In this document: one piece after another, positions 1,046 through 62,231 of the stretch
Numbering within the stretch: position 1 is the stretch's first letter
How the letters are laid out: each line of letters begins with the position of its first letter
From: a virus
Taxonomy: Duplodnaviria > Caudoviricetes
Virus record (IMG/VR): IMGVR_UViG_3300042543_000618
Location: 12,904-76,903 of that record
Length of the DNA stretch: 64,000 nt
Direction: 5' to 3' (one strand)
Position numbers and translations under genes: made by a program
Notes under the pieces: generated by a model
Databases searched by the model: none
What the model was told of the DNA's origin: nothing
What the model saw: only the letters and a program-made list of their open reading frames with translations

Positions 1046-1501
1046 ATGCCTGCTAAGACTCCAGAGTTGATCCAAGCCAGAATTAAGAAGCTCTATGCTG
1101 AGTCCGGCAATACGATTGAGGATATTGCCCAGATTTGTGGCGTCTCCACTGGCACCGTTAAGCGGGTAGTCAAAGACGGCAAGCTGAGCCGGACCCCTAC
1201 CCGCAGCGCTAATCAGGTGGTCGCTGACGCGATCGCGGCGGGGGCGAAGGTTACCATCGATGGCCTCGACGTAAATGACTACATGACCCGCACTATCAAG
1301 ACCCTGGCGGGTGCAGTCAACGAGGCAGAGGCCAAGTCCCTGGAGGGCGTAGCTACGGCGCTGGCTAGGTATCTGCAGCTATACCGGGAGATGAACCCGA
1401 CCACGCTGGAGGAAGCAACGATCGCGCTACTGAACCGACCAGACTTTGACGCGCAAGCCTTCCACCGCATCCTACAACGCCATGCAGAGAAAGCAGGGTA
1501 A
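1046..1501 (+). CDS. Probable terminase small subunit (N-terminal HTH)
   Basis: TIEDIAQICGVSTGTVKRVV HTH; directly upstream of and overlapping terL. Confidence 0.7.
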   Translation: MPAKTPELIQARIKKLYAESGNTIEDIAQICGVSTGTVKRVVKDGKLSRTPTRSANQVVADAIAAGAKVTIDGLDVNDYMTRTIKTLAGAVNEAEAKSLEGVATALARYLQLYREMNPTTLEEATIALLNRPDFDAQAFHRILQRHAEKAG

Positions 1502-3353
1502 CGCGATCGCGCTATTGGAGCTAATGAGCCAGGGCCAGGAACCAACGGCGGGTGACTCCCCCTGGCTAGAGAACCCCTTACCCCTAGCTGAGTTCTGCCG
1601 CGCCTACCTGGACGTTACCCCTTGGGATATTCAGCAACAGGATTTAAGCCAGTTCCTAGGTACAACGGCGGCGGATGCTAAAGCACTATTTACCCAAGAC
1701 CCGCCGACCCTTTACAATTGTGGCATTTTGTGTTATGGCAAGGGAGCGGGCAAGGATACCCTAGCCTCCGTCTGCCTTGTGTGGTTTGCCCATGTGCTGC
1801 TATGCCTGAGAGACCCCCAAGACTTTCTAGGACTTGCCCCCCAGGAACCCATTGATATTGCTCTAGCTTCACCTACCCTGCGCCAGACGCGGCGGGTAAC
1901 CTTCACCAAGCTAAAGAACCGACTGCGGACCTGCACCTGGCTAAAAAGCTACCTAGCGCGTTCAGAGTTTGCGATCGCAGACGTTGACCGGTATATCAAA
2001 AAAGCAACTGACGCGGCGGACTATATTGAACTACCCCACAATATTCGGATCCACAACCTACCGCTGATTAGCAGTAGCGCAGAGGGGTTTAACCTACTGG
2101 CATTCGTGATTAGCGAGTTTGCAGGGCTAGAGTCAGAAGCCCAGGGGGCCACGGCGGAGGCATTGTTCAATACCTTTGTCACCTCCTGCCGCACCCGCTT
2201 CAGAAAGGCATGGAAAGGTTTTCTAACCAGCTTTCCGCGTAGCGTATCGGACCCGCAGGAACAGTTGATTGAAGCCCACCAGGAGGGACGGTTCCCTGAA
2301 CTATTTGTGGTGCGTCGCCCCACCTGGGAAGTCGTGCCCCACCTGGAGTACAAAGACTTTGAAACTGAATTTATCAGAGACCCAGAAGGATCGGCGGCTA
2401 AGCTAGCGGCCCAACCTCGGGCGGCGACTGAAGCCTACTTTAGATCGCCTGAACTAATTGTCCGTCATGCCAGTGGGGGGACATCCGACCTACTGAAGCG
2501 CTATGGCGTGACGGGTAGCGATCGCAGCCCTGACCCCATCCTAGAGCGCGACCTATTTGGTGACGTGGTACTGGATAGCTATGGCTTTCCGATGCTAGCC
2601 AACTGGTTCAAGGGCAAGCCCGAACGCGAGTATTACATTCATATCGACCTGGGGCTATCGGGTGATAGTGCCGGGTTTGCCATGGCCCACCTGGAGCCGG
2701 TGGGCGATCGCGCGGACCGACTGATACCGGCATTGGACCTATCCTTTCGTTGGAAGGCGGCCCACTTTACCGGACGCGGCCAGTTGCAGCGCATTAACTG
2801 GGAGGGCGGCGATTTCACAACTGTGGACATCCGCCAGGCGGAGATAGACTTGCAGACACCGGTGGAATTTGTATTGCTGCTGAGCAAGCGGCTAGGGTTT
2901 GCGATCGCGCGGGTGACGTTCGACCAATTCAATAGCGCTACGGCTCGACAGCTGCTATACCACTATGGCGTTAGCAGCCAGAATTTTTCGGTGGACCGTA
3001 ACCCAGGTTATTACGATGAACTAAAGGCGCTTATTTATGCCAGACAGTTGGTGTACCGCATCGACCCGATCCTGTTCGGGGAATTGCGGAAATTGGTGAG
3101 GCTATCGACCGGACGGATTGATGCCCCCCGTACCGCCTTAGGTAGTGACGTGGATAGCCATAAAGATATTGCCGATGCAGTAGCGTCGGTCGTGGGGGCA
3201 CTGTGCAAGCTATCAGCCGCCTCCGGTGAGTTCTATAGCCTGCCAGAGCCAGAGGTGGTAGAAGAGGGCACAGAAGAGCCCTCAGGGCCGATAGAGCTTG
3301 GGTCTGACTACAGCAAGACCCAGAGCGAAATTATGAAGGAGTTTTTTGAATAA
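1482..3353 (+). CDS. terL: Terminase large subunit
   Basis: Walker A GKGAGKDT; Walker B-like FVISEF; RNase H-type nuclease YIHIDLGLSGD...TFDQFNS...HKDIADAVA; ATG at 1482 preferred over TTG at 1446. Confidence 0.88.
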   Translation: MQRKQGNAIALLELMSQGQEPTAGDSPWLENPLPLAEFCRAYLDVTPWDIQQQDLSQFLGTTAADAKALFTQDPPTLYNCGILCYGKGAGKDTLASVCLVWFAHVLLCLRDPQDFLGLAPQEPIDIALASPTLRQTRRVTFTKLKNRLRTCTWLKSYLARSEFAIADVDRYIKKATDAADYIELPHNIRIHNLPLISSSAEGFNLLAFVISEFAGLESEAQGATAEALFNTFVTSCRTRFRKAWKGFLTSFPRSVSDPQEQLIEAHQEGRFPELFVVRRPTWEVVPHLEYKDFETEFIRDPEGSAAKLAAQPRAATEAYFRSPELIVRHASGGTSDLLKRYGVTGSDRSPDPILERDLFGDVVLDSYGFPMLANWFKGKPEREYYIHIDLGLSGDSAGFAMAHLEPVGDRADRLIPALDLSFRWKAAHFTGRGQLQRINWEGGDFTTVDIRQAEIDLQTPVEFVLLLSKRLGFAIARVTFDQFNSATARQLLYHYGVSSQNFSVDRNPGYYDELKALIYARQLVYRIDPILFGELRKLVRLSTGRIDAPRTALGSDVDSHKDIADAVASVVGALCKLSAASGEFYSLPEPEVVEEGTEEPSGPIELGSDYSKTQSEIMKEFFE

Positions 3354-3555: not shown

Positions 3556-3701
3556 AATGCCTCCGGTTCTATTTGTGTATATCTTACGATAACACTTCAG
3601 TTTAAGCTAGCTGCGCCATAGCTAGAACTCTGAGCAATTCTCACCATGGCACCTCCCTTTAGAGGCGACGTAGTACGCTGAAATTGGAGAGGGGATTGAC
3701 C

Positions 3702-5042
3702 ATGGCACACTATCAACTTTGCTACGGGCGGGTATCGACTGAAGAGCAAAGCCTGGAATTACAGGTGCAGCAATTCCAGCAACAGCTTGAGTTTGATGAA
3801 CTGTTTGCTGAAAATTTGTCAGGGCGTAGGCGCGATCGCCCTGAATTTTTGCGCATGGTAGAACGGGCATTAGACCTCCGTGGTCAACGTCATCAAGTTA
3901 CAGTATGGGTCATCGAGTGGACGCGGTGGGCACGGGATACGGTTTATTCGATGGAAAGCTTGGCCCAATTGGAAGCGGCGGGCGTACAAGTGAAGGAGCT
4001 AACCACCGGCCAGGAGATCACGCTACAGACCGCCTCAGGGCTGCTCACCACTGGCGTTAAGTCGCTGATGGCGCATTATTACTCAGTAGAACTAGGCGAG
4101 CGCATCCAGCGTGCCTATGCCCAGATGAGGCGGCAGGGGCGCCCCATGTGTGGCCCGCCTCCCTTCGGCTACCAGCGATCGCCGGATGGTAGCCGCTATG
4201 AACCGGGGCCAGAGTGGGCAAAGGCAAGGGCGGCGATAGAATTTTACCTAGAGCACGGCAACCTGATGGCATTGTCAGCCCACATGGAGGGGCGCTACGG
4301 GTTTTATAAGTCGCGGGCGGGTTGGCGGTGGTGGCTACGTAGCGCGGCGCTACGAGGGCATTTGCACTATGCCAAAACTGATGAGTGGCGCTACAACACC
4401 CACCCGGCACTGATCACCGAAGAAGAGTACAAGCGTATTGAATACCTGATTAGCCTCAACCGTCAGTTGCGCGGCAACAATCAAGGACGCATCCATGCGG
4501 TGCCGCCTATTGTGTCCTGTGTTTGTGGCTGCCGGTGCCGTGCGCTTATCCGCCGGGGCCATCGCTATTTTGCCTGTGCGGCCAAAGCTGACTACCATGA
4601 CCGGGAATGCTCCTACACCCGTTCTTGCCGCCAGGATGCCATTGAAGCAGCCATTCAGGAGGCGTTGGTAGAGGCCGCTGAAGCGATCGCGGCGGATATG
4701 CTACAGCCCTCGACGGTGAACCCGCAGGCGATCGCGTTGGAGCGGGAACTAGAAGCACTTCGTCCTTTGGCGCACCGGGCGGCGATCGCCGAAGAAATTG
4801 CTGCCATCGAGGCGGAGCTACAAACCTTAGCTGGGATGGCAAGCCATGTCAGTGCTAACCAGCAAGAGCTACGGGAAAAAACAATGGCGATCGCGCAGGC
4901 GGACCTGAACCTATTGCCGGTGGTAAGGCGCCGGGAAATCTACGCGGAATTGGTGGAGCGGGTGATCATGCAAGGGAAAGAAGTAGTGGAGGTGCGGCTA
5001 AAGTTTATTGGCAATAAGCAACCGTCAGACAGCAGGTTCTAG
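3702..5042 (+). CDS. Large serine recombinase (integrase), XisF-like architecture
   Basis: YGRVSTEEQS catalytic motif, GPPPFGY recombinase domain, Cys-rich zinc ribbon (CVCGC...YFAC...C), coiled coil. Confidence 0.92.
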   Translation: MAHYQLCYGRVSTEEQSLELQVQQFQQQLEFDELFAENLSGRRRDRPEFLRMVERALDLRGQRHQVTVWVIEWTRWARDTVYSMESLAQLEAAGVQVKELTTGQEITLQTASGLLTTGVKSLMAHYYSVELGERIQRAYAQMRRQGRPMCGPPPFGYQRSPDGSRYEPGPEWAKARAAIEFYLEHGNLMALSAHMEGRYGFYKSRAGWRWWLRSAALRGHLHYAKTDEWRYNTHPALITEEEYKRIEYLISLNRQLRGNNQGRIHAVPPIVSCVCGCRCRALIRRGHRYFACAAKADYHDRECSYTRSCRQDAIEAAIQEALVEAAEAIAADMLQPSTVNPQAIALERELEALRPLAHRAAIAEEIAAIEAELQTLAGMASHVSANQQELREKTMAIAQADLNLLPVVRRREIYAELVERVIMQGKEVVEVRLKFIGNKQPSDSRF

Positions 5043-5888
5043 CGATACAGTAACGCCTGACTGGCGATCGGGGGTAAGCTTTAGCCAGACGCCGCCGAGG
5101 CTTTTCGGCATGACAATGCGCTCCACCGCCCAGCCATTACCGCCTTCAAATTCTTCTTTGTAGGTGCCGGTCTGTACATGGTATCGCGGGGTTACCTTTA
5201 CCTTGCCGGTCTCCGCCAAGCGATAGCAAGGGTGGCTGACAATGCTGCGTTCGTGGTTATGGCCATTGACGATAATATCGGCATCTGGGGCGATACTGGC
5301 GTAGCGACCGCCGCCCATGGTGCCCTTGGTGATGATGCCGCCCCAGGCGCCATGGTGAAAAAACAGGGTGCAGCGTCGCACCTTCTCAACGCCATTGCCG
5401 CGCTGCTTGTAGAACACAAAGCGCACCCAGCCCTGGTAACCCATGTGCTCAGTAACCGCCTTATGGCGATCGCGCATCTGCTGCACTACGTTAGCGAGTG
5501 GGTCCACCTCCTGGTGGTTGATGATGGCAGTTTCGTGGTTGCCATTGCCCATCATTAAAATTTCTTTGCCGTAGGGGCCAAGAATATCGGCAGACTCCTT
5601 GAATACCAAGTCAAAATAATTGGCCCCCTGGTGCTCGGGGCGAATACTGGCCTTGCTGCCCCGCTTGTCGCGTTTGCCCTGCATCAGGCATAGCACGTCG
5701 CCAAAAAATAAGGCCCTGCCACCCAGAGCCTTCATTTTATCGAGGTGAGAGAAGAATAGCTTGCGATCACATTTTGGGTTATCCAGGTGAATGTCGCTGG
5801 CCAGCAAAAAGTGCTGGGTCTCCTCCCCGGTGTAGCGCATCCGGATTTCGAGAAGTTCATCTGATAAGCGCTTTACGTCAATGTCCAT
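5025..5888 (-). CDS. Calcineurin-like metallophosphoesterase
   Basis: SDIH, FGD, GNHE, HHG and GHNH motifs. Confidence 0.85.
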   Translation of the reverse strand: MDIDVKRLSDELLEIRMRYTGEETQHFLLASDIHLDNPKCDRKLFFSHLDKMKALGGRALFFGDVLCLMQGKRDKRGSKASIRPEHQGANYFDLVFKESADILGPYGKEILMMGNGNHETAIINHQEVDPLANVVQQMRDRHKAVTEHMGYQGWVRFVFYKQRGNGVEKVRRCTLFFHHGAWGGIITKGTMGGGRYASIAPDADIIVNGHNHERSIVSHPCYRLAETGKVKVTPRYHVQTGTYKEEFEGGNGWAVERIVMPKSLGGVWLKLTPDRQSGVTVSLEPAV

Positions 5889-5985
5889 CTCTCTAACGAG
5901 AGTGCATAGCCCCAGTCTATCGGATGTCACAAATAATTAACAAAACGCCACGGGATGCCCATGGCGCTTAATGTTAGTCACCTGT

Positions 5986-7131: not shown

Positions 7132-7430
7132 AAAAAACTCTCCACAACGGATTGAAATTTGCGGTCAAGTGCCTCTAATGCCTCGTAGGACATCAGCGAC
7201 AGTTGACCCATGGGGGATGTACCCTGCAGGCGTTGGATAGCTTCTTCCTCGCTTACACCGTCCTCAAGGACAATGGAGCGCACGGCTACCCGGTAGATGT
7301 AACCTTCTACCTTGGCGCGGTCTTGATTAAACAATTCCAGTGTCATCTTAAAATTGCACTGGATACGCGCCAAAAAAACGTCAATGCAGTCCACTGGCGG
7401 CCTCCAGGCGATCGCTAAAGGCAGCCTCAT
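7128..7430 (-). CDS. Hypothetical protein
   Basis: Coupled ORF in the operon; start uncertain. Confidence 0.5.
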   Translation of the reverse strand: MRLPLAIAWRPPVDCIDVFLARIQCNFKMTLELFNQDRAKVEGYIYRVAVRSIVLEDGVSEEEAIQRLQGTSPMGQLSLMSYEALEALDRKFQSVVESFL

Positions 7431-7469
7431 CTAACGCCTGTCCTAACATGACTGGCACCATAACATCGC

Positions 7470-7880
7470 CTATGCTAGAAAACCCTCCCACCCGGGTAGT
7501 GGGTAGTTTGCCCTCCCGGTGAAATTGGGCAAATTAGCCTTTAACTTTTGCTTGGCTAGTTGCTGAGCCGCAATGTAAGCGTCTTTCTCGCGATCGCTCA
7601 TATCGGCATATCGCTTGTAACCACTAGGCACCGCTGAAGCCTTACGCTCTAACTCCTGGCGCACCAGTTGCTTGACGCTGGCCAGTAATTGAGCCGGGCT
7701 TAAAAACGGCTCAGCATAAGCTTTGCCAAACAACTTAACCAGCTCATCAAGCGAACATTGGCGGCAATAGTCAAACAATCGTTCCATGGCATCGTCATCA
7801 AGCCGAAACTTGCTGCCATGCCAGGTTTGCATTTCCTCCATCAAGGACCGTAGCCCTTCCATGGTTAACTCATCGTCCAT
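7470..7880 (-). CDS. Hypothetical protein downstream of the replication initiator
   Basis: 136 aa; position typical of a helicase loader/inhibitor, but no diagnostic motif. Confidence 0.6.
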   Translation of the reverse strand: MDDELTMEGLRSLMEEMQTWHGSKFRLDDDAMERLFDYCRQCSLDELVKLFGKAYAEPFLSPAQLLASVKQLVRQELERKASAVPSGYKRYADMSDREKDAYIAAQQLAKQKLKANLPNFTGRANYPLPGWEGFLA

Positions 7881-49779: not shown

Positions 49780-50318
49780 TGCAATACTCCCGCTTTTTCA
49801 ATGAAATAGGAACCGTGAATAAACCTTTTAATGCCTGCATCGGCGGCGGCATAGTAGGCTTCTGTTTGCAGCCCCACCATGGTGGTCTGTTCAGGCGTCA
49901 CCCTAAACCAATCCATGGCCGATAGGATCATGCCTGGCTGGGGCATCCGGTAGCCGGTGTTGGCGTACTTTTGACATTGGCTGTACACCTTGGGAGAGAA
50001 CGGCATGGTCATCTGGACAGCATAATTTCCAGAGCCACCCCGGGCCAAAGGGCAAAACCAGATGGCTTGAACCCAATAGTTAGACAGCTCAAACATGGCC
50101 CCGAATAGGCTTTGACACGCACCGAAAGCCAAGTGGCCTTTCTCAACGCCGCCTTGGTTGCTACAGATAGCGACACTGTAGCCCTTGTCAACGTAAGGCT
50201 CCAGTGCACCTAGGATGCCTGGGACCAGGATCATGTCCTCCCGGTTGTTGATGTAGACACCGGGTCCGTTTTTGTGCTGCACTAGGGCGGTGTGGTCTAG
50301 CAAGAGTAGTCGCTTCAT
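49776..50318 (-). CDS. HAD-IIIA (GmhB-like) fold protein with degenerate catalytic motifs
   Basis: ICSNQGG and PxPGMI retained; DxD, K and GD motifs altered. Confidence 0.7.
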   Translation of the reverse strand: MKRLLLLDHTALVQHKNGPGVYINNREDMILVPGILGALEPYVDKGYSVAICSNQGGVEKGHLAFGACQSLFGAMFELSNYWVQAIWFCPLARGGSGNYAVQMTMPFSPKVYSQCQKYANTGYRMPQPGMILSAMDWFRVTPEQTTMVGLQTEAYYAAADAGIKRFIHGSYFIEKAGVLQ

Positions 50319-51241
50319 CGTTCTCCCTCCATGACTGCTGTAATGAATTGGGCGGCTTGCTGGGGAACGATGGCGTTTCCGTAGCCGCGTAGCCTCATGG
50401 TTCTGGCTTCCGCCGTTTCATTTGCCGGTATGCCAGGATTGCTGCCACACACCAGATCGGCGGGAACCCCATTAACCAACGGGAAAATGCTGCGTTGAGC
50501 TGGCCGGGCTTTTCCGTCGGCGCAGGGGAGCCAGTCGGGGTGTTGCCATGGGTTAACCTGGCTACCTCGTTCAAGGGTCTGACATTGTCCCCATGTTTGT
50601 TGCTGGCGCTGGATTTCCAATCCCTGGCCGCCGGCGTCGGCCAGGGAACTAACATCACCTGATCGTTGAGAGATCGCCCGTGAACGTTTTTCACCCACCG
50701 ACGGCTGTAGCCGCCCTTGTTGTCCTTGGCTTGGGGTGTTGACCAAGGTGCCAACCCAGTACAGTCGCTGGCGCAGATGGGGCGCACCGAGCCCCGCAGC
50801 GCATAGATCGACTGCCCCGCAGGCGTAGTCCGCTGCTTCCAGGTCAGTTGATACAACATCCCACCATCCAAGGGCATCGCTTGATGCAACTTGCTCACCA
50901 AAGACGATCTCAGGGCGACACTGGCTAATGAGCCAAAAGAACGCTGGCCATAGGTGCCGCTCATCAGCAGTCCCTTTTCCTTTGCCTGCCGCGCTGAAAG
51001 GCTGGCATGGGCAACTACCGGTCCAGACGGGTCGGTCCTCTGGCCATCCGGCAAGTTGCAAGGCATAGGGCCACCCACCGATACCGGCGAAGAAGTGGCA
51101 TTGGACGTAAGGCTCAAGTTCAATTGGAGTGACATCTTCTATGCTCCTATCGTCTACTACGCCATCCGGCAAAGCACCCTGAGCTATCAACTCCTTCAAC
51201 CATGCCGACGCTTGGGGGTCGTTTTCGTTGTAGTAGTTCAT
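50315..51241 (-). CDS. C5 cytosine methyltransferase, alpha subunit
   Basis: HFFAGIGGW, GSCPCQPFS, FGEQV, HLRQRLYW, LRGYGNAIVP. Confidence 0.9.
   Translation of the reverse strand: MNYYNENDPQASAWLKELIAQGALPDGVVDDRSIEDVTPIELEPYVQCHFFAGIGGWPYALQLAGWPEDRPVWTGSCPCQPFSAAGKGKGTADERHLWPAFFWLISQCRPEIVFGEQVASSDALGWWDVVSTDLEAADYACGAVDLCAAGLGAPHLRQRLYWVGTLVNTPSQGQQGRLQPSVGEKRSRAISQRSGDVSSLADAGGQGLEIQRQQQTWGQCQTLERGSQVNPWQHPDWLPCADGKARPAQRSIFPLVNGVPADLVCGSNPGIPANETAEARTMRLRGYGNAIVPQQAAQFITAVMEGER
50395..51135 (-). CDS. Nested alternative-frame ORF, probable MTase beta subunit
   Basis: WSTPQAKD, WPTPAARDWK, GQLNAAFSRWLMGFP. Confidence 0.7.
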   Translation of the reverse strand: MSLQLNLSLTSNATSSPVSVGGPMPCNLPDGQRTDPSGPVVAHASLSARQAKEKGLLMSGTYGQRSFGSLASVALRSSLVSKLHQAMPLDGGMLYQLTWKQRTTPAGQSIYALRGSVRPICASDCTGLAPWSTPQAKDNKGGYSRRWVKNVHGRSLNDQVMLVPWPTPAARDWKSSASNKHGDNVRPLNEVARLTHGNTPTGSPAPTEKPGQLNAAFSRWLMGFPPIWCVAAILAYRQMKRRKPEP

Positions 51242-51492: not shown

Positions 51493-51686
51493 AATGGCCT
51501 CCCCCAGGACTCTTTTACCTGAGCTACCAGAAACGCTCGTTGGCCCGCCTCTAGGCGTTTTAAGCCTTTGCAGATGACGATCAGCTCGTCAAAGTTAGCC
51601 CGGGTAAATTCCAGGCTGTCTAGCGATCGCTCGAATTGGGCGATCGCAAATTCTGCCTCAGTCGATAGCTGAATAGGTTGGTTCAT
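51489..51686 (-). CDS. nblA: NblA-like phycobilisome degradation protein
   Basis: 65 aa; MNQPIQLSTEAEF N-terminus and KESWG C-terminus match the NblA pattern; AGGAG RBS. Confidence 0.7.
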   Translation of the reverse strand: MNQPIQLSTEAEFAIAQFERSLDSLEFTRANFDELIVICKGLKRLEAGQRAFLVAQVKESWGRPL

Positions 51687-51694
51687 AGCTACTC

Positions 51695-52459
51695 CTAGAA
51701 CGGTATCTCTTCATCCCAATCAGTTGCCGCCCGCGAGTCCACCCCGGCAGCGACGGGCTTAGCGTTGGCGCGCTGGGTAATGCGATCGCGGCTTCCGCCA
51801 GGTGGATTACCTGCCGGGGGACGGGTCGGCGGTGGCGGTGCCGCTGGTTGGGTGGTGGGTTCCGGTGCTGGCGCTTCCTTGCCCAGGGCTTTGTAAACCC
51901 TGGTTTTTGCCTCGGTAGCGATCGCCCGCCAGTCATCGTCCGCCTTCCAACTGGCTTGGAGCTTGCCGGATTGCGTGGTGATAGACACGTTCAAGGTGCG
52001 ATCTCCGGTCTGCAGCTCTGAGACGTAGCTAAACAGCCGGATAGGCTGCTGTAGGTCCGCTACGGGGCATAGGCTCAAGGCGGTTAACAGGGAGCGGCTA
52101 AAAAATGACTGGGCGCCAGACTCGAAAATATAAGTCTTGCCGTCTTCACCCTCCATCACCAAGTCGAGCTTGGTGACATCTTCTCCGCGTCGTTCTCGCT
52201 GGACAAACCGCAGATCTTTTACCAATCCCCAGAATGCAGGGGGCATAGTTTCCTGTTGGTTGTTTTCCAGTAGCCGATACCAGCCATCGCCATTCCCCTT
52301 GACGAGGTTGGCAAAGATAAACTCTGGCCGCCCGGCGTCCGCCTGGAAGCCTAGGGGCTGGGTACTTTTGGGTATTGTCGATAGCGCGATCGCTTTGAGG
52401 CTTGCGGCGATCTCTTCAAGGGCGAGGGCGATCGCTAAGTTTGTATCAACGTCTGCCAT
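51695..52459 (-). CDS. Putative ssDNA-binding/recombination protein
   Basis: Pro-rich linker and SSB-type acidic tail DWDEEIPF. Confidence 0.55.
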   Translation of the reverse strand: MADVDTNLAIALALEEIAASLKAIALSTIPKSTQPLGFQADAGRPEFIFANLVKGNGDGWYRLLENNQQETMPPAFWGLVKDLRFVQRERRGEDVTKLDLVMEGEDGKTYIFESGAQSFFSRSLLTALSLCPVADLQQPIRLFSYVSELQTGDRTLNVSITTQSGKLQASWKADDDWRAIATEAKTRVYKALGKEAPAPEPTTQPAAPPPPTRPPAGNPPGGSRDRITQRANAKPVAAGVDSRAATDWDEEIPF

Positions 52460-52478
52460 GGTTCTGGTTCTCCTAAAT

Positions 52479-52509
52479 AAAAAAATGGGGGCCAGCCGAA
52501 GCCAGCCCC
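52479..52509 (-). terminator. Intrinsic terminator with UUCG loop
   Basis: Minus strand GGGGCTGGC-TTCG-GCTGGCCCC-CATTTTTTT. Confidence 0.8.
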
Positions 52510-52524
52510 AGGGGGTTGCGTCAA

Positions 52525-52869
52525 TTAGCCAAGGTGGCCAGGCTGACGGGGGCGGTCACTAGGAAACTGATTGCGCTTGTCGCTTTCGGCGTTGGCTAGC
52601 ACGGCAGCGCTGCGGCGGTTCGTGCAGGTGCCGTTCATGCACCGGGGGAACTGATCCCGCCTAGACTTGGCGCTGGATTTGGCTTGTTCGTCATCTACCC
52701 GGCCAGTTCCCCGCCATTGCGCACCCTCGCGGGCGCAATCGGGGTCCGTGGCTAACCCCTTGATGGGGCAGTGCCCATCCCCGCCACGCCCGGGCATCCC
52801 GGTGGTAGCCATGGCAGCGGTGGGGAGCAGGGTAGCGATCAGGGTAGTGGTAAGAATAAAGTTTTTCAT
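52525..52869 (-). CDS. Secreted small protein with RGTGR motif (PatX-like)
   Basis: GGAG RBS; signal peptide MKNFILTTTLIATLLPTAAMA; WRGTGR encoded at 52699-52716. Confidence 0.6.
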   Translation of the reverse strand: MKNFILTTTLIATLLPTAAMATTGMPGRGGDGHCPIKGLATDPDCAREGAQWRGTGRVDDEQAKSSAKSRRDQFPRCMNGTCTNRRSAAVLANAESDKRNQFPSDRPRQPGHLG

Positions 52870-52921
52870 GATTCTCCATGTGGTCTTTTGAGTGTTGTGA
52901 ACCCCGTGGCTCACATTTCAA

Positions 52922-52950
52922 ATAGTATATTGCAAATAAGCAACAGTCAA
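52922..52950 (-). promoter_or_regulatory. Sigma70 promoter with operator site 2 overlapping the spacer and -10
   Basis: TTGACT-17 nt-TACTAT; GTATATTGCAAATAAGC at 52925-52941. Confidence 0.7.
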
Positions 52951-52983
52951 GCATATATGCAATAATTCAGTAGTTTTACAGGG

Positions 52984-53235
52984 ATGTGGGCAATCATGTA
53001 CATGACGCTCAAAAGTTTTCGGTATATATCCGGGCAAAAGTCTTTGTACATCGAGGATGACGAAGACAGGCTACACTTCAGCGGTGTAGATCCCATTTGC
53101 GGCGGCGCGGCGGTGCGGTGGCTAAACAACCATCAGGGCAAGCCGATTATGGTGAATTTCATTTGCTACGGGCCAGAGTGCGTACTGGTTCTAGAGGATG
53201 ACCAGCAAGATCGGCTAACCATTCTAGGGTTCTAG
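52984..53235 (+). CDS. Small hypothetical protein
   Basis: 83 aa ORF divergent from the PatX-like gene. Confidence 0.5.
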   Translation: MWAIMYMTLKSFRYISGQKSLYIEDDEDRLHFSGVDPICGGAAVRWLNNHQGKPIMVNFICYGPECVLVLEDDQQDRLTILGF

Positions 53236-54255
53236 CCATTCCACCTCTGGCAACTCTAGGGCATCCATCGACGTTTTGCCGCCAGGTAGGCCGTAGTATT
53301 GCAGCACTAGCCCCTCCGGCGGGATCTCCATAGTGGCAAGCTTGCGCCTAAACTTAACCGGTATTTTGCCTGCCGAATGGCGACAGTTAGGATGCTGGGG
53401 CAGGCTAGCTACCCAGGCGTCGGGGCGAACGCCAAAGTTAGCAAATAGGTTGCGTTTTAGCACCTCTATTGTAAAAACGCGACCGTCAATCAACCGGCGG
53501 CAATGTTCGCAGGAGCCCGCGTGGGGCATGACATAAGCTAACCGTTGCCCGCTTGCCTCCAGCGTGGCCAGGATGCCTAGGTTCATCATCCGCATGGATT
53601 CGGTGCGGGAAATGGTTTGCGCTCGAGATGCGATCGCATTCAACAGCCGTGACTCGGTATTGATGAGCCATTCCTGTACCATGGCTGGGGTGACGGCACC
53701 AGGGTCCGCGCCTAGCTCCTGGGCGATCAGGTCGCGGCGCAGCAGGTTTTCAAGGATGGGTACTGCCCCGGCAGGGTTGCGGTTTTTTAGCGACTCCACC
53801 GCCAGCACATCTCGCATCATGCCCCGGGCGTCATCGGATAGGCGTTTCACCCAGTCCAATGAAAAGCGAGCGCCCTGGTTAAAGCTTTCCCTCACCGCCG
53901 GGGGGACGTTAGCAATGTCCTCTGGCGTTACCCTAAACCGGGCGGCGTAGCCTGCCACCTGGTCGTCGGGGATGATGGCGGCCAAGTTGCGGCGTAGGCG
54001 GGCGGCGATCGGTTCCTGTTGTTGGTACGCCCATTGGGCCACCTCTCGCACCTTGAGGACGGTCGCCACCCACTCCGGTATCGGTTGGCCGGTGGAGATA
54101 TTCACCAGGTAGGGCTCTGTCACCCCCTCGACGTAGCCATCGACAATGCCAAGCGCGATCGCGTCCTCGTACTGTCGCTCAAACCAATCCAGGAACGCGA
54201 TAATATCGGTCGGCTCAAACTGGCTGAAGTCGTCGGGGGCAAGGGGAGACCACAT
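53224..54255 (-). CDS. Head morphogenesis protein (Mu gpF/SPP1 gp7-like)
   Basis: AQTISRTESMR, CEHCRRLIDGR, LPQHPNCRH; start at a TAATG overlap. Confidence 0.8.
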   Translation of the reverse strand: MWSPLAPDDFSQFEPTDIIAFLDWFERQYEDAIALGIVDGYVEGVTEPYLVNISTGQPIPEWVATVLKVREVAQWAYQQQEPIAARLRRNLAAIIPDDQVAGYAARFRVTPEDIANVPPAVRESFNQGARFSLDWVKRLSDDARGMMRDVLAVESLKNRNPAGAVPILENLLRRDLIAQELGADPGAVTPAMVQEWLINTESRLLNAIASRAQTISRTESMRMMNLGILATLEASGQRLAYVMPHAGSCEHCRRLIDGRVFTIEVLKRNLFANFGVRPDAWVASLPQHPNCRHSAGKIPVKFRRKLATMEIPPEGLVLQYYGLPGGKTSMDALELPEVEWLEP

Positions 54256-54467
54256 TATTCGACGCCCCAACGTTGGAAGCTTTGACGCTCCATGTCCCTG
54301 GTCGGTCGCCAATGGGGAAACATGGAGCGCCAAGCTTGGTAAATGTCAGCGCGATCGCTGCTCTCGTTAAAGCGCATCGCTAGTTCCAAAATATCGAACG
54401 CGGTAGGCTTATCGAAGGCGCATAGCGCATCGCGGATGCCTTCCAGGTAGGAGCGCCAATTAATCAC
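54255..54467 (-). CDS. Small hypothetical protein
   Basis: 70 aa coupled ORF. Confidence 0.5.
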   Translation of the reverse strand: MINWRSYLEGIRDALCAFDKPTAFDILELAMRFNESSDRADIYQAWRSMFPHWRPTRDMERQSFQRWGVE

Positions 54468-59612: not shown

Positions 59613-62231
59613 CTAGAGTTTTCTAACGTAGAACCGCATTCCACCGCCAGGGATTGTGATTGAACCCTTTCGCTGGTCCTGGGTAATGTTAGGGTTGTCC
59701 CCTCCCATTAACTGAATGTGGTCATCGGCCTGCATTTCTAGCAGCCAATTATCAAATTGCTTTTGGGAGATGCGGTTGCCTAATTCATGGCGGATGCGAT
59801 AAATGGGAACTAGATCCCCTAGATTGTAGTCGGCACTAAGCTGATCATAAACGTTGGCCATTTCGCTCTTGAAATTGTCATAGGACTTAATTGGCGTTGT
59901 TTTTGGCTTGGGTTGAGGGGGCGCTTTAGGTTGTTGCCTGGAGATGGGTGACTGGGTTGGGGTTGGATCGTTGCCGCCAAAATCTTCTAGTTTGCTAACA
60001 TAAAAACGCAGTCCACCTCCCGGGATTGTAACCGAATCCTCCCGCTGATCTTGAGCAATGGTAGGCACAGCTTCTCCCGTTAATTGAATTTTGTCGTCCG
60101 CTTGAATGTCAAACAACCATTCATTGAATTGCGCACGGGAGACGCGATCGCCTAGCTCGCGGCGGATGCGATAGATAGGCACCATGTCGCCTAGGTTTTC
60201 CTCGGAGTTGAGCTTGTCGTAGATCCTGGCAACTTCGTTTTTGAACTCACCATAGGACGCGATCGGCTTTGCCTGCGGCTGGGGCTGGGTTTGTGGCTTG
60301 GCCTTGGGTTTAACGGCTGCTTTCTTGCCCTTCGGCTTCACCTTACCTGTCGAGGCTGGCTTTTGCTCGGGCTCAAATGCTTGGCGGATGAAATGGTACT
60401 CGCTGTTGTCGTCCTTAATTTGAGACGTTGATACGTCATTGGCGTCTAGCGCGTAGGCCATATCCGCCCGGCTTAGATCGAGCTTTCGCTGCCGGTTAGC
60501 CCTCACCAAGCGCTTTTTGAAGTCGTCTAGGCTGAGGTTTAGGTCTGGGTGCTGTTTCTGCAAGGTCTCCCATACCTTGGAGATAAATACATTGGAGTTC
60601 CCTAGCCGCCCGCCCTGGGTTGCCTTGGCTGCATTCAGGGCCAGATCGACAAAGGCATCATCTGACAAGGGTTCCGAGGTCGTTTTCTTACCCTTGGGTT
60701 TCACATCAGCCTTTTTCGGCGGCGCCTTAGAGTCAAGCGCCATAAAGGCTTGAATAAAGCGATCTTCAGATCCCGGGACTAGGAACTTGGCCGCTGCACT
60801 CCCGTCCTGATCCGATTGCACTGCCCTTAGGTTTGACGCATCAAAGAAATTCACCCTGCCATCGCCTTTGTTCACTTCAGTTTCCGCGATCGCTCCCTCC
60901 TTTACCTGTTGGGCTACACTTCTCATCATGTCCAGCCTAGCGGGCTCTGAAAGGCTGGCAAAGCCTTTGTCTGGATAGGTGCCGCTTAGCATTTGCCTAA
61001 GCGTGTTCATCTTCTGCTCAGGGCTAAGCTGCCTGATTGCAGGCTCAAGCTTGTCAATAATGTCCTCATCCTGTGGGGTGAGATCAACATCAGCCATCAA
61101 GTAGGCTCGTTTCCTGCCGGTTTGCATCTCCCGCTCTTTTCTTACGCGATCTGTACTCTCTTTAACTTTTTGCCCGAGCACGTGTGTAAGTAGGGCGGCG
61201 CGCTGCCAATCTTCCATCGGCGCCAGGAAATCACGGATTTCCGCGACATCCTGCGGCAGTGTTGTATCTTCTGCCTTCGGCTTTACCTCAGCCTTTTTCG
61301 CCTTCGGCTTTACCTTATCTGTCGGGGCCTTTTTCGCCTTAGCGGGCTTGTCCACGGGGGACACCTTTGGCGTCACCTTGGCCGCCGCCCGTTGTGCCTT
61401 GGCGTTTAATTTGCCCTGCTGCACCGCTTGGGCACCGCCGCCCGGGGGACGGCTATCAAAGCGCATTGCCCTTGGCTTACCTTTTGCTTTAGCGCCATCC
61501 ATCGGGATGACGGGCACTACACCGCCGGGGGGCTTTGGCCGCTTGCCCCTGGCTGGCTTGCTGCCGCGATCGCTCCGTTCCCAGCGACGGTTTTTATTGA
61601 GTCGGTAGGTGACGCCGTTGCGTTCCTTGGTAGCGCCTTCCTCCAGCATGGAGCGTCGGGCTGCCTTCTGTAGGTTGGCGCTGGGAATATGGGATTCTAG
61701 AAAATAAAGGCCGTTGCGTTCCATGTCCATGTGGATGCCTATCAGTACGTCAGCAATCCCCTGGATGCCGTCAGTCAATAGCTCCTCAACCAAGTCCATC
61801 ATGTGGCGGATTAGGTAGGCGTAGCGGTCCGCTAGTTCGTCTAGGATGGCGTATTGGTCGCTGCCATTGCTGTAGGGCATCAAGATAGTGCGATCGCCGA
61901 TATCGTCCGCAGTGCCTACCACCACCATGCCCAGGGTAGCCACATTCTCAGCCACCAGGTCGATATGGGGCAATAGGCTTTCTTGCAACTTATCAAAAAG
62001 TTCATGCAATTGCTGGAAGTTGATGCCTTTCACGTTCCAGTGGGCTAGTTGCAGCGATAGGCGTAGGTCTATTAGCGAACACAGCAAGGCATTCAGGTCG
62101 GCGCCAATGCTACCCCGCTGCTCAGCATCCATCGGCAGCCGGGTATCAAAGTCCGCCGCTTTGCGAAAGACAATGCCACGGGGGGACGCGATCGCGGTGT
62201 AGCGATCGCCTGCAAGGGTGAAGGTTTTCAT
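59613..62231 (-). CDS. Leader-bearing multidomain protein: Dps/ferritin domain plus C-terminal tandem repeat domains
   Basis: MKTFTLAG...GIVFRKA; HWNVKGINFQQLHELFD...IDLVAE; GVTYRLNKNRRWER; two VPIYRIRxELG...GGxRFYV repeats. Confidence 0.85.
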   Translation of the reverse strand: MKTFTLAGDRYTAIASPRGIVFRKAADFDTRLPMDAEQRGSIGADLNALLCSLIDLRLSLQLAHWNVKGINFQQLHELFDKLQESLLPHIDLVAENVATLGMVVVGTADDIGDRTILMPYSNGSDQYAILDELADRYAYLIRHMMDLVEELLTDGIQGIADVLIGIHMDMERNGLYFLESHIPSANLQKAARRSMLEEGATKERNGVTYRLNKNRRWERSDRGSKPARGKRPKPPGGVVPVIPMDGAKAKGKPRAMRFDSRPPGGGAQAVQQGKLNAKAQRAAAKVTPKVSPVDKPAKAKKAPTDKVKPKAKKAEVKPKAEDTTLPQDVAEIRDFLAPMEDWQRAALLTHVLGQKVKESTDRVRKEREMQTGRKRAYLMADVDLTPQDEDIIDKLEPAIRQLSPEQKMNTLRQMLSGTYPDKGFASLSEPARLDMMRSVAQQVKEGAIAETEVNKGDGRVNFFDASNLRAVQSDQDGSAAAKFLVPGSEDRFIQAFMALDSKAPPKKADVKPKGKKTTSEPLSDDAFVDLALNAAKATQGGRLGNSNVFISKVWETLQKQHPDLNLSLDDFKKRLVRANRQRKLDLSRADMAYALDANDVSTSQIKDDNSEYHFIRQAFEPEQKPASTGKVKPKGKKAAVKPKAKPQTQPQPQAKPIASYGEFKNEVARIYDKLNSEENLGDMVPIYRIRRELGDRVSRAQFNEWLFDIQADDKIQLTGEAVPTIAQDQREDSVTIPGGGLRFYVSKLEDFGGNDPTPTQSPISRQQPKAPPQPKPKTTPIKSYDNFKSEMANVYDQLSADYNLGDLVPIYRIRHELGNRISQKQFDNWLLEMQADDHIQLMGGDNPNITQDQRKGSITIPGGGMRFYVRKL

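Follow-up and report, generated by a model that had tools for sequence, protein, structure and literature searches.

A small gene of an uncultured lake virus encodes a predicted exported protein with a six-residue insert, [WY]RG[ST]GR across its alleles, that contains the unit by which filamentous cyanobacteria inhibit HetR (HRGTGR peptides of PatX, ERGSGR peptides of PatS and HetN). The DNA that we analyzed, hereafter the window, is a stretch of 64,000 nucleotides (nt) corresponding to bases 12904–76903 of the 76.9-kb virus record IMGVR_UViG_3300042543_000618; the gene, whose product we call P0001, occupies positions 52525–52869 on the minus strand. P0001 belongs to a new family of hypervariable, probably mobile, and predicted exported cyanophage proteins in which the insert (hereafter the cassette) is optional. 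Several features together speak for the cassette being a functional peptide module: it is inserted as a unit, varies only between W and Y and between S and T, two positions at which the natural host peptides differ as well, is retained throughout the window's phage lineage, accompanies a predicted export signal, and occurs in a phage with hints of a filamentous host. Mimicry by the phage of the host RG(S/T)GR signal would be its most specific explanation, which we put forward tentatively, at somewhat below an even chance, and for which we infer both host and target.

An optional RG(S/T)GR cassette in a new family of phage proteins

A word-indexed search placed P0001 in a family of 58 proteins (P0001 included), all of 88–126 amino acids (aa) and all unnamed. 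When 1.84 billion representatives were searched exhaustively with HMMER, 14 matched at E <= 0.001, and 12 of these are short family members of 65–123 aa, the query among them; the other two are doubtful. The 5703-aa protein P0061 (E 6.7e-5) aligns with query residues 7–41 only, which leaves its membership in doubt, and P0062 was rejected as an unrelated repeat protein. P0001 had no match in Pfam or PHROG, nine family members had none in NCBIfam at E up to 10, a tblastn search of P0001 against 50,697 phage records returned nothing, and no cellular homolog was present in the protein libraries searched. DNA loci of the family were recovered from virus records (7), metagenome contigs (14), and, in the whole genome collection, a single species genome; this last locus (L001, the other loci being numbered likewise) is a 2.8-kb contig binned in a metagenome-assembled genome (MAG) labeled Limisphaerales.

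In the alignment, G30, D31, G32, C34, P35, D42, P43, D44, and C45 are invariant, and all indels among the 58 homologs are in frame. Judged by these columns, the family core is GDG-x-CP...DPDC and not RG(S/T)GR. A first-pass annotation of the window had proposed as a check whether RG(S/T)GR is the conserved core among homologs. The outcome was divided: 39 of 58 members lack the motif, but the motif does behave as a discrete module. It is intact in 19 of 19 carriers (10 with RGTGR and 9 with RGSGR), always as [WY]-R-G-[ST]-G-R with R, G, G, and R invariant, and the residues that follow it are variable, with an entropy of 1.7–2.9 bits. Nine further cluster members also have it intact. The smallest difference between alleles is the hexapeptide itself (AREGAQ-WRGTGR-EQAKS versus AREGSQ-QLSKS), and a tandem duplication, RGTGRGTGR, is found in P0002 and P0098, the latter differing from P0097 solely by this repeat.

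The signal peptide of the window's phage lineage, which we call the group-A type, is MK[NS]FI..., MR[NS]FII..., or a poly-Thr variant. Alleles of this type carry the cassette in 10 of 10 cases, versus 9 of 48 among the others (Fisher p = 1.8e-6, calculated on related and thus non-independent rows). Within the same lineage the rest of the protein is shuffled, with GRGGDG or RGDG at the N terminus, a loop of 4 or 12 residues, and HLG or RAV at the C terminus. Over all 58 members, the C terminus is QPGHLG in 22, QPIHLG in 6, QPRHLG in 5, QPEHLG in 2, and QPSHLG in 1, and 22 have other ends. A quick tree implied at least six gains or losses of the cassette and is unreliable for such short mosaic sequences. 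The first-pass annotation had cautioned that a 5-mer can arise by chance and that this one is internal and preceded by W, and the caution was justified: the six-frame translation of the window holds two single RG[ST]GR motifs versus 1.16 expected, which is chance level, and the motif of P0001 follows W52 inside a 114-aa protein. It is only by its behavior in homologs that the motif rises above chance.

Layout of the gene and its product

The small unit spans 52525–52950 on the minus strand, plus a hairpin down to 52478, and comprises promoter-like, ribosome-binding, coding, and terminator-like parts. The elements listed by the first-pass annotation (promoter, operator-like repeat, ribosome-binding site, signal peptide, WRGTGR, Cys pairs, (R/K)RxQFP repeats, and UUCG hairpin) are all present on this strand. 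In the direction of transcription, the features are:

52922..52950, minus strand: sigma-70-like promoter TTGACT-17-TACTAT (consensus match, putative function)
52896..52915, minus strand: 20-nt inverted repeat TGTGAGCCACGGGGTTCACA, composed of TGTGAGCC-ACGG-GGTTCACA, just 3' of the -10 hexamer (unique in the window)
52874..52877, minus strand: ribosome-binding site GGAG, 7 nt before the ATG (read from the sequence; GGAG also in L002 and L005)
52525..52869, minus strand: coding sequence of P0001, a 114-aa pre-protein, ATG at 52869, stop codon TAA included (open reading frame, ORF; 58-member family)
52807..52869, minus strand: predicted Sec/signal peptidase I-type signal peptide, residues 1–21, site AMA/TT (inspection and hydropathy)
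52735..52782, minus strand: invariant core G30-D-G-H-C34-P...D42-P-D-C45, with the first Cys pair (invariant alignment columns)
52699..52716, minus strand: optional cassette W52-R-G-T-G-R57 (in 19/58 homologs, as [WY]RG[ST]GR)
52645..52662, minus strand: repeat 1, RRDQFP, residues 70–75 (sequence and alignment)
52624..52641, minus strand: second Cys pair C77-MNGT-C82, a 12-residue loop in other alleles (sequence and alignment)
52561..52578, minus strand: repeat 2, KRNQFP, residues 98–103 (sequence and alignment)
52528..52545, minus strand: conserved C-terminal QPGHLG (homolog C-termini)
52478..52509, minus strand: terminator-like hairpin GGGGCTGGC-TTCG-GCTGGCCCC followed by T7, with a 9-bp G+C-rich stem and a UUCG loop (pattern match, also in the computed fold)

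By inspection and hydropathy, the signal peptide has K2, hydrophobic residues 4–20, and A-M-A before T22, and the homologs retain AxA sites. P0001 has Cys at positions 34, 45, 77, and 82, and four Cys are found in 49 of 58 homologs. In the mature part, which carries a net charge of +5 and has no lipobox and no membrane anchor, 72% of the residues are Gly, Pro, Ser, Thr, or otherwise polar or charged. AlphaFold2, run on the 58-row alignment, gave a mean predicted local distance difference test score of 51.2 and a predicted template modeling score of 0.15; the chain is thus predicted to be disordered, as a pro-peptide would be. In the ESM Atlas there was nothing at or above 0.9, only look-alikes among small periplasmic proteins. 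A complex prediction for the HetR hood domain (HETR_NOSS1 216–299) with P0001 residues 38–75 scored 0.00, was run with no controls, and speaks neither for nor against binding.

The promoter-like sequence is the single match in a scan of 51500–53500, for which shuffled sequences gave a mean of 1.1, so that the match alone is not above chance; likewise, shuffles of the whole 76-nt terminator region fold as well as the region itself (z = 0.16). No base of the -10 hexamer, the inverted repeat, or the ribosome-binding site changes among the window, L002, and L005, and a single base of the -35 hexamer does (TTGACT in the window, TTGACC in both relatives). Because these signals are kept while the remaining spacer 5' of the gene has diverged to ~65–85% identity, the promoter and the inverted repeat gain weight. 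From its position, the repeat is a candidate operator or 5' untranslated region hairpin, and an Rfam search of 52300–53400, the repeat included, gave no match. GC content is 63% in the coding sequence versus 46% in the upstream spacer. In L008, the gene has a TTGACA-17-TACTAT promoter of its own and a hairpin after it.

The first-pass annotation had described a monocistronic unit. The gene does have its own promoter- and terminator-like signals, but the T-run abuts the next gene, with AGGAG and then the ATG of that gene (51695–52459, minus strand) following within ~25 nt of it, so read-through is possible and the unit may not be monocistronic. The 354-nt spacer upstream of the small gene contains an ORF of 83 codons on the opposite strand (52984–53235, plus strand), which has ~63% identity in L002 and L005 and no family match and may be non-coding.

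A probably mobile gene in at least three phage contexts

In the window, the small gene lies between a gene with a minor-head-protein-like segment (53224–54333; PHROG E 1e-7) and the 254-aa gene at 51695–52459 (minus strand). Close relatives of the window phage, L002, L003, and L005, which are rich in HIP1, have the small gene at the same site. Their neighbor proteins are 76–98% identical to those of the window (>90% in L002 and L003; the 254-aa gene 76% in L005), and the small protein only ~55–57%. DNA identity falls from ~92% to 45–69% within the 3' half of the small gene, and contigs from four lake runs, a result for contigs only, show breaks or replaced segments between ~52575 and 52700.

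A second group of phages (L001, L004, L006, L007, L008, and several metagenome contigs) has no HIP1 and 56–60% GC, and shares with the window phage only the small gene, DnaN (33%), and an SbcD-like exonuclease (88%). In L008, the small gene is divergent from a 79-aa XRE-type helix-turn-helix (HTH) gene (7426–7665, minus strand, called by reading the sequence), an arrangement that resembles the layout of an immunity region. In L020, it lies next to terL, whose product is 83% identical to TerL of the window phage. With placements in at least three contexts, the small gene is probably a mobile accessory unit.

Other genes give a picture of the phage, which encodes a tail sheath, baseplate wedge, portal, terminase, DnaN clamp, and C5 methyltransferase. 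A 452-aa serine recombinase/integrase with a resolvase domain (3684–5042, plus strand; PHROG E 2e-45) suggests a temperate lifestyle; its gene adjoins the terminase gene (1446–3353, plus strand), and several terminase homologs have intein domains (PF14890). The C5 cytosine methyltransferase (50315–51241, minus strand; PHROG E 3e-78) is absent from L002, L003, and L005, where DNA identity is 0–6%. The SbcD-like exonuclease/metallophosphatase (5025–5930, minus strand) has 88% aa identity with those of the HIP1-free L004, L006, L008, and L013–L015; set against only ~33% for DnaN, this suggests that the two phage groups exchanged genes recently. Unusually for a phage, an 872-aa protein (59613–62231, minus strand) carries a ferritin-like (Dps-like) domain at its N terminus (Pfam E 7e-12); the protein matches a PHROG labeled "DNA binding protein." The 254-aa neighbor of P0001 has no Pfam or PHROG match, contains a Pro-rich linker, and ends in ...DWDEEIPF; an acidic C-terminal tip is typical of bacterial single-stranded DNA–binding (SSB) proteins, and this may be a novel one heading the replication module. 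No tRNA was found in the window, and ten ORFs in 6.6–14.2 kb had no Pfam match. The HIP1-free group is enriched in TGGATCCA (21 copies in 68 kb, ~22-fold) and in GCTAGC (~5-fold), which may be a host or restriction-modification signature.

Clues to the phage and its host

HIP1 (GCGATCGC) is a hallmark of cyanobacterial genomes and of their phages. The window contains 124 copies versus 1.33 expected, or ~1.9 per kb, and this excess identifies its phage as a cyanophage; a cyanobacterial host is thus strongly supported by sequence composition. Density is ~2 per kb in L002, L003, L005, L010, and L011, ~1 per kb in L020 and L022, and 0 in the second phage group. The 24 listed sequencing runs with the same phage DNA all come from lake or freshwater metagenomes, with no culture among them. 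There is no close cultured relative: the 984-aa protein had no match, and sheath, terminase, and portal matched only at <=30% (phages of Bacillota and others). The phage is an uncultured, myovirus-like, and probably temperate lake cyanophage.

Only 3 of 39 sheath homologs are named: those from a Leptolyngbya sp. SIO1D8 MAG (61%), Leptothoe spongobia (58%, on a 71-kb contig), and Leptolyngbya sp. FACHB-36 (50%, on a 130-kb contig). All three are thin filamentous cyanobacteria. Among terminase homologs, 2 of 33 are named (Leptolyngbya SIO1D8, 53%, and "Cyanobacteria bacterium," 52%), and a Microcoleus MAG protein falls in a 36% cluster. A filamentous host is hinted at by these names. A host bearing HetR would then be plausible, as the available part of PMC11298460 reports hetR and patX in nearly all filamentous cyanobacteria, both those that form heterocysts and those that do not.

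For the HIP1-free group, a verrucomicrobial host found no support: in 401 genomes of the phylum, L008 DNA matched only the Limisphaerales MAG, apart from one 34-nt match (E 6e-4). When picocyanobacterial hosts were checked, one methylase-helicase gene of L008 was like that of Synechococcus phage S-CBS3 (63% aa), and the other three group-B loci gave nothing beyond one weak match.

Weighing the explanations of the cassette

As described in the available portion of PMC12756182, the 56-aa PatX acts only after export, for which it carries a Sec signal peptide, has its motif at the C terminus, and is cut by the periplasmic peptidase PatP; a TrxA-PatX-MBP fusion yielded peptides flanking HRGTGR on both sides only with PatP, and HRGTGR, whose KD for HetR is 88 nM, abolishes DNA binding by HetR. 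In the reading that we favor, the small gene is a self-contained moron encoding a predicted signal peptide, a tiny invariant disulfide loop, and a disordered basic mosaic tail, with the [WY]RG[ST]GR insert directly behind the loop in alleles of the window's phage lineage. By the likeliest mechanism, P0001 would be exported to the periplasm, where host proteolysis, by PatP or something similar, would cut the disordered chain and release an RG(S/T)GR peptide. In the infected or lysogenic cell, and in the cells next to it in the filament, this peptide would take the part of the host's PatX signal and block HetR-dependent programs. Export, cleavage, target, a filamentous HetR-bearing host, and the roles of the cassette-free alleles and of the conserved loop are what we infer here. 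In general terms, phages of filamentous cyanobacteria might deploy a mobile exported carrier with an inserted or duplicated host morphogen hexapeptide, and the resulting HetR inhibition might keep neighboring cells vegetative and phage-permissive; we consider this wider proposal possible, if on balance doubtful. None of the readings accounts for the invariant disulfide loop, which all alleles share.

Several observations weigh against mimicry, as do the differences from PatX that are set out in the last section. With 39 of 58 members lacking the cassette, the conserved function of the family cannot depend on it. The cassette codons are nearly identical across loci, and the apparent conservation may in part be recent spread; the duplication may be replication slippage. 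Cassette and phage context do not map one to one: the cassette occurs in the HIP1-rich window, L002 type, and L005, occurs as well in the HIP1-free L001 and L008, and is missing from the HIP1-positive L020 and L022. Short contigs in the clusters of 74–77% identity (P0143 and P0067) bear the label of an Aquiluna MAG, and L001 that of Limisphaerales; contigs of both phage groups are concerned. Both labels are probably mis-binning, which for Aquiluna is most likely because of the HIP1 density, and such odd labels make name-based host clues fragile. Typical heterocyst formers have a GC content near 40%, to which the 55% of the phage is a poor fit. A search of the 76.9-kb record for the HetR family gave no match and was silent in all 14 control genomes too, and is thus uninformative. 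Finally, PatX affected transcription in Leptolyngbya BL0902 in a way that was largely independent of HetR (PMC11298460, same part).

What is invariant in the family is the loop and not the cassette, and this would suit a periplasmic protein for lysogenic conversion or superinfection exclusion, which, through its disulfide loop, would attach to or hide a component of the envelope or keep competing phages from entering, and in which RG(S/T)GR would be incidental or an unrelated short motif. Such a role is consistent with a moron-like unit that has its own promoter-like signal and hairpin, lies in three contexts (beside the minor-head-like and SSB-like genes, the XRE-type HTH gene in L008, and terL in L020), evolves far faster than its neighbors (~57% aa versus >90%, and 45–69% DNA identity in the 3' half), has co-existing replaced alleles in lake metagenome contigs, and travels in a phage encoding a serine recombinase. 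However, most exclusion proteins have a fold and are either lipoproteins or anchored in the membrane, and P0001 has neither lipobox nor anchor and is predicted to be disordered; nor does exclusion account for the unit-wise insertion, invariance, and lineage-wide retention of [WY]RG[ST]GR. We regard it as unlikely, while taking it seriously. The cassette might instead be a recognition, cleavage, or decoy site for PatP or another RG(S/T)GR receptor, independently of HetR, by which the phage splits its own protein or competes with native substrates. This would accommodate the cassette in HIP1-free contexts, whose hosts may lack HetR, and the largely HetR-independent action of PatX in Leptolyngbya BL0902 (PMC11298460, as above). 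It would also suit the distribution of PatP, which according to the available text of PMC12756182 is near-universal (86% of 474 cyanobacterial genomes, unicellular ones included, with patX and hetR confined to filamentous clades) and has an unknown native substrate in unicellular species. Recognition of RG(S/T)GR by PatP is, however, not demonstrated in that text, in which a mapped cut falls 27 residues upstream of RG(S/T)GR. We judge this account improbable.

A third role would be that of an arbitrium-like pro-peptide for communication between phages, from which a short peptide, such as the C-terminal QP-x-HLG, is processed and sensed by relatives. P0001 is a small signal-peptide protein in a recombinase-bearing phage, its C-terminal hexapeptide is conserved with one variable position, and in L008 an XRE-type regulator gene lies next to the small gene. 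We nevertheless judge this very improbable: no candidate receptor is adjacent, the neighbors belonging to no receptor-type Pfam or PHROG family, 22 of 58 alleles have other C termini, and arbitrium systems are known in phages of Bacillota. The lysis–lysogeny signaling peptide that the first-pass annotation had offered as an alternative likewise has no receptor candidate nearby. That the gene is non-functional, or the motif pure chance in a fast-drifting ORF, seems to us scarcely credible. Single RG[ST]GR motifs are indeed at chance level (2 versus 1.16), and the protein has neither family annotation nor fold, but there are 58 homologs with invariant Cys, Asp, and Pro and in-frame indels, the ribosome-binding site and promoter are conserved, and the gene is found in at least three phage backgrounds.

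RG(S/T)GR peptides are the diffusible inhibitors in the best-studied bacterial Turing-type patterning system. Should mimicry of this signal by P0001 be true, viruses would tap bacterial multicellular signaling through a removable peptide module behind an export signal, and P0001 would be the first known case of a virus imitating a developmental signal of bacteria. P0001 would then also be a natural probe of what PatX, HetR, and PatP do in filamentous cyanobacteria without heterocysts, where the role of PatX and HetR is termed a mystery in the available part of PMC11298460. Natural alleles with and without the cassette, together with peptides, make the proposal directly testable. If it fails, what stands is still a new and, in lake metagenomes, widespread family of hypervariable, mosaic, and predicted exported phage proteins.

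Comparison with known systems

Phage morons are independently transcribed accessory genes of temperate phages. The small gene resembles them in its own promoter- and terminator-like signals, its place in a co-directional array, its varied positions in related phages, and its predicted exported product. It differs in encoding a disordered mosaic pro-protein and in showing no presence/absence polymorphism at the exact site in three close relatives. With AimP of the arbitrium system, P0001 shares the format of a short phage pre-pro-peptide that starts with a signal sequence and ends in a conserved hexapeptide varying at one position; unlike arbitrium, it has no AimR-like neighbor, comes from a phage of a diderm cyanobacterial host, contains Cys loops, and is a much longer protein.

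P0001 has no homology to PatS or to HetN, the latter a much larger protein. It shares with both the pentapeptide that is their active unit, and in HetN the motif is internal too, as stated in the available part of PMC7761841, which also reports a few PatX alleles with RGTGR instead of RGSGR. A description of a phage-encoded RG(S/T)GR protein was not found among the matches listed for the literature searched; the searches for PatX in PMC12756182, as far as its available text goes, used Pfam and PGAP profiles.

With PatX itself the comparison is closest. The first-pass annotation had suggested a possible phage mimic of PatX or PatS, which our results support in part: a cyanobacterial host is strongly supported (124 HIP1 copies versus 1.33), and P0001 has no profile match to PatX, an internal motif, and no DIF1 promoter. 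By its sequence, P0001 is not a PatX homolog or family member: there is no match in Pfam or NCBIfam, libraries in which the presence of a PatX model was not confirmed. PatX has 56 aa and a C-terminal motif, whereas P0001 has 114 aa and an internal motif behind a disulfide loop, with 57 residues after it. No TCCGGA of the DIF1 type occurs in 52400–53300, where a sigma-70-like promoter and an inverted repeat are found instead. The P0001 gene is phage-borne and has no apparent link to hetR, and the cassette is optional in its family. Like PatX, P0001 is small, has a predicted Sec-type signal peptide, and carries RG(S/T)GR after a single position that varies (H in PatX6, W or Y in the phage family); in both families S and T variants occur, and extracytoplasmic processing is plausible. 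P0001 is thus predicted to have the working parts of such a signal, namely an [x]RG(S/T)GR unit in a disordered chain headed by an export signal.

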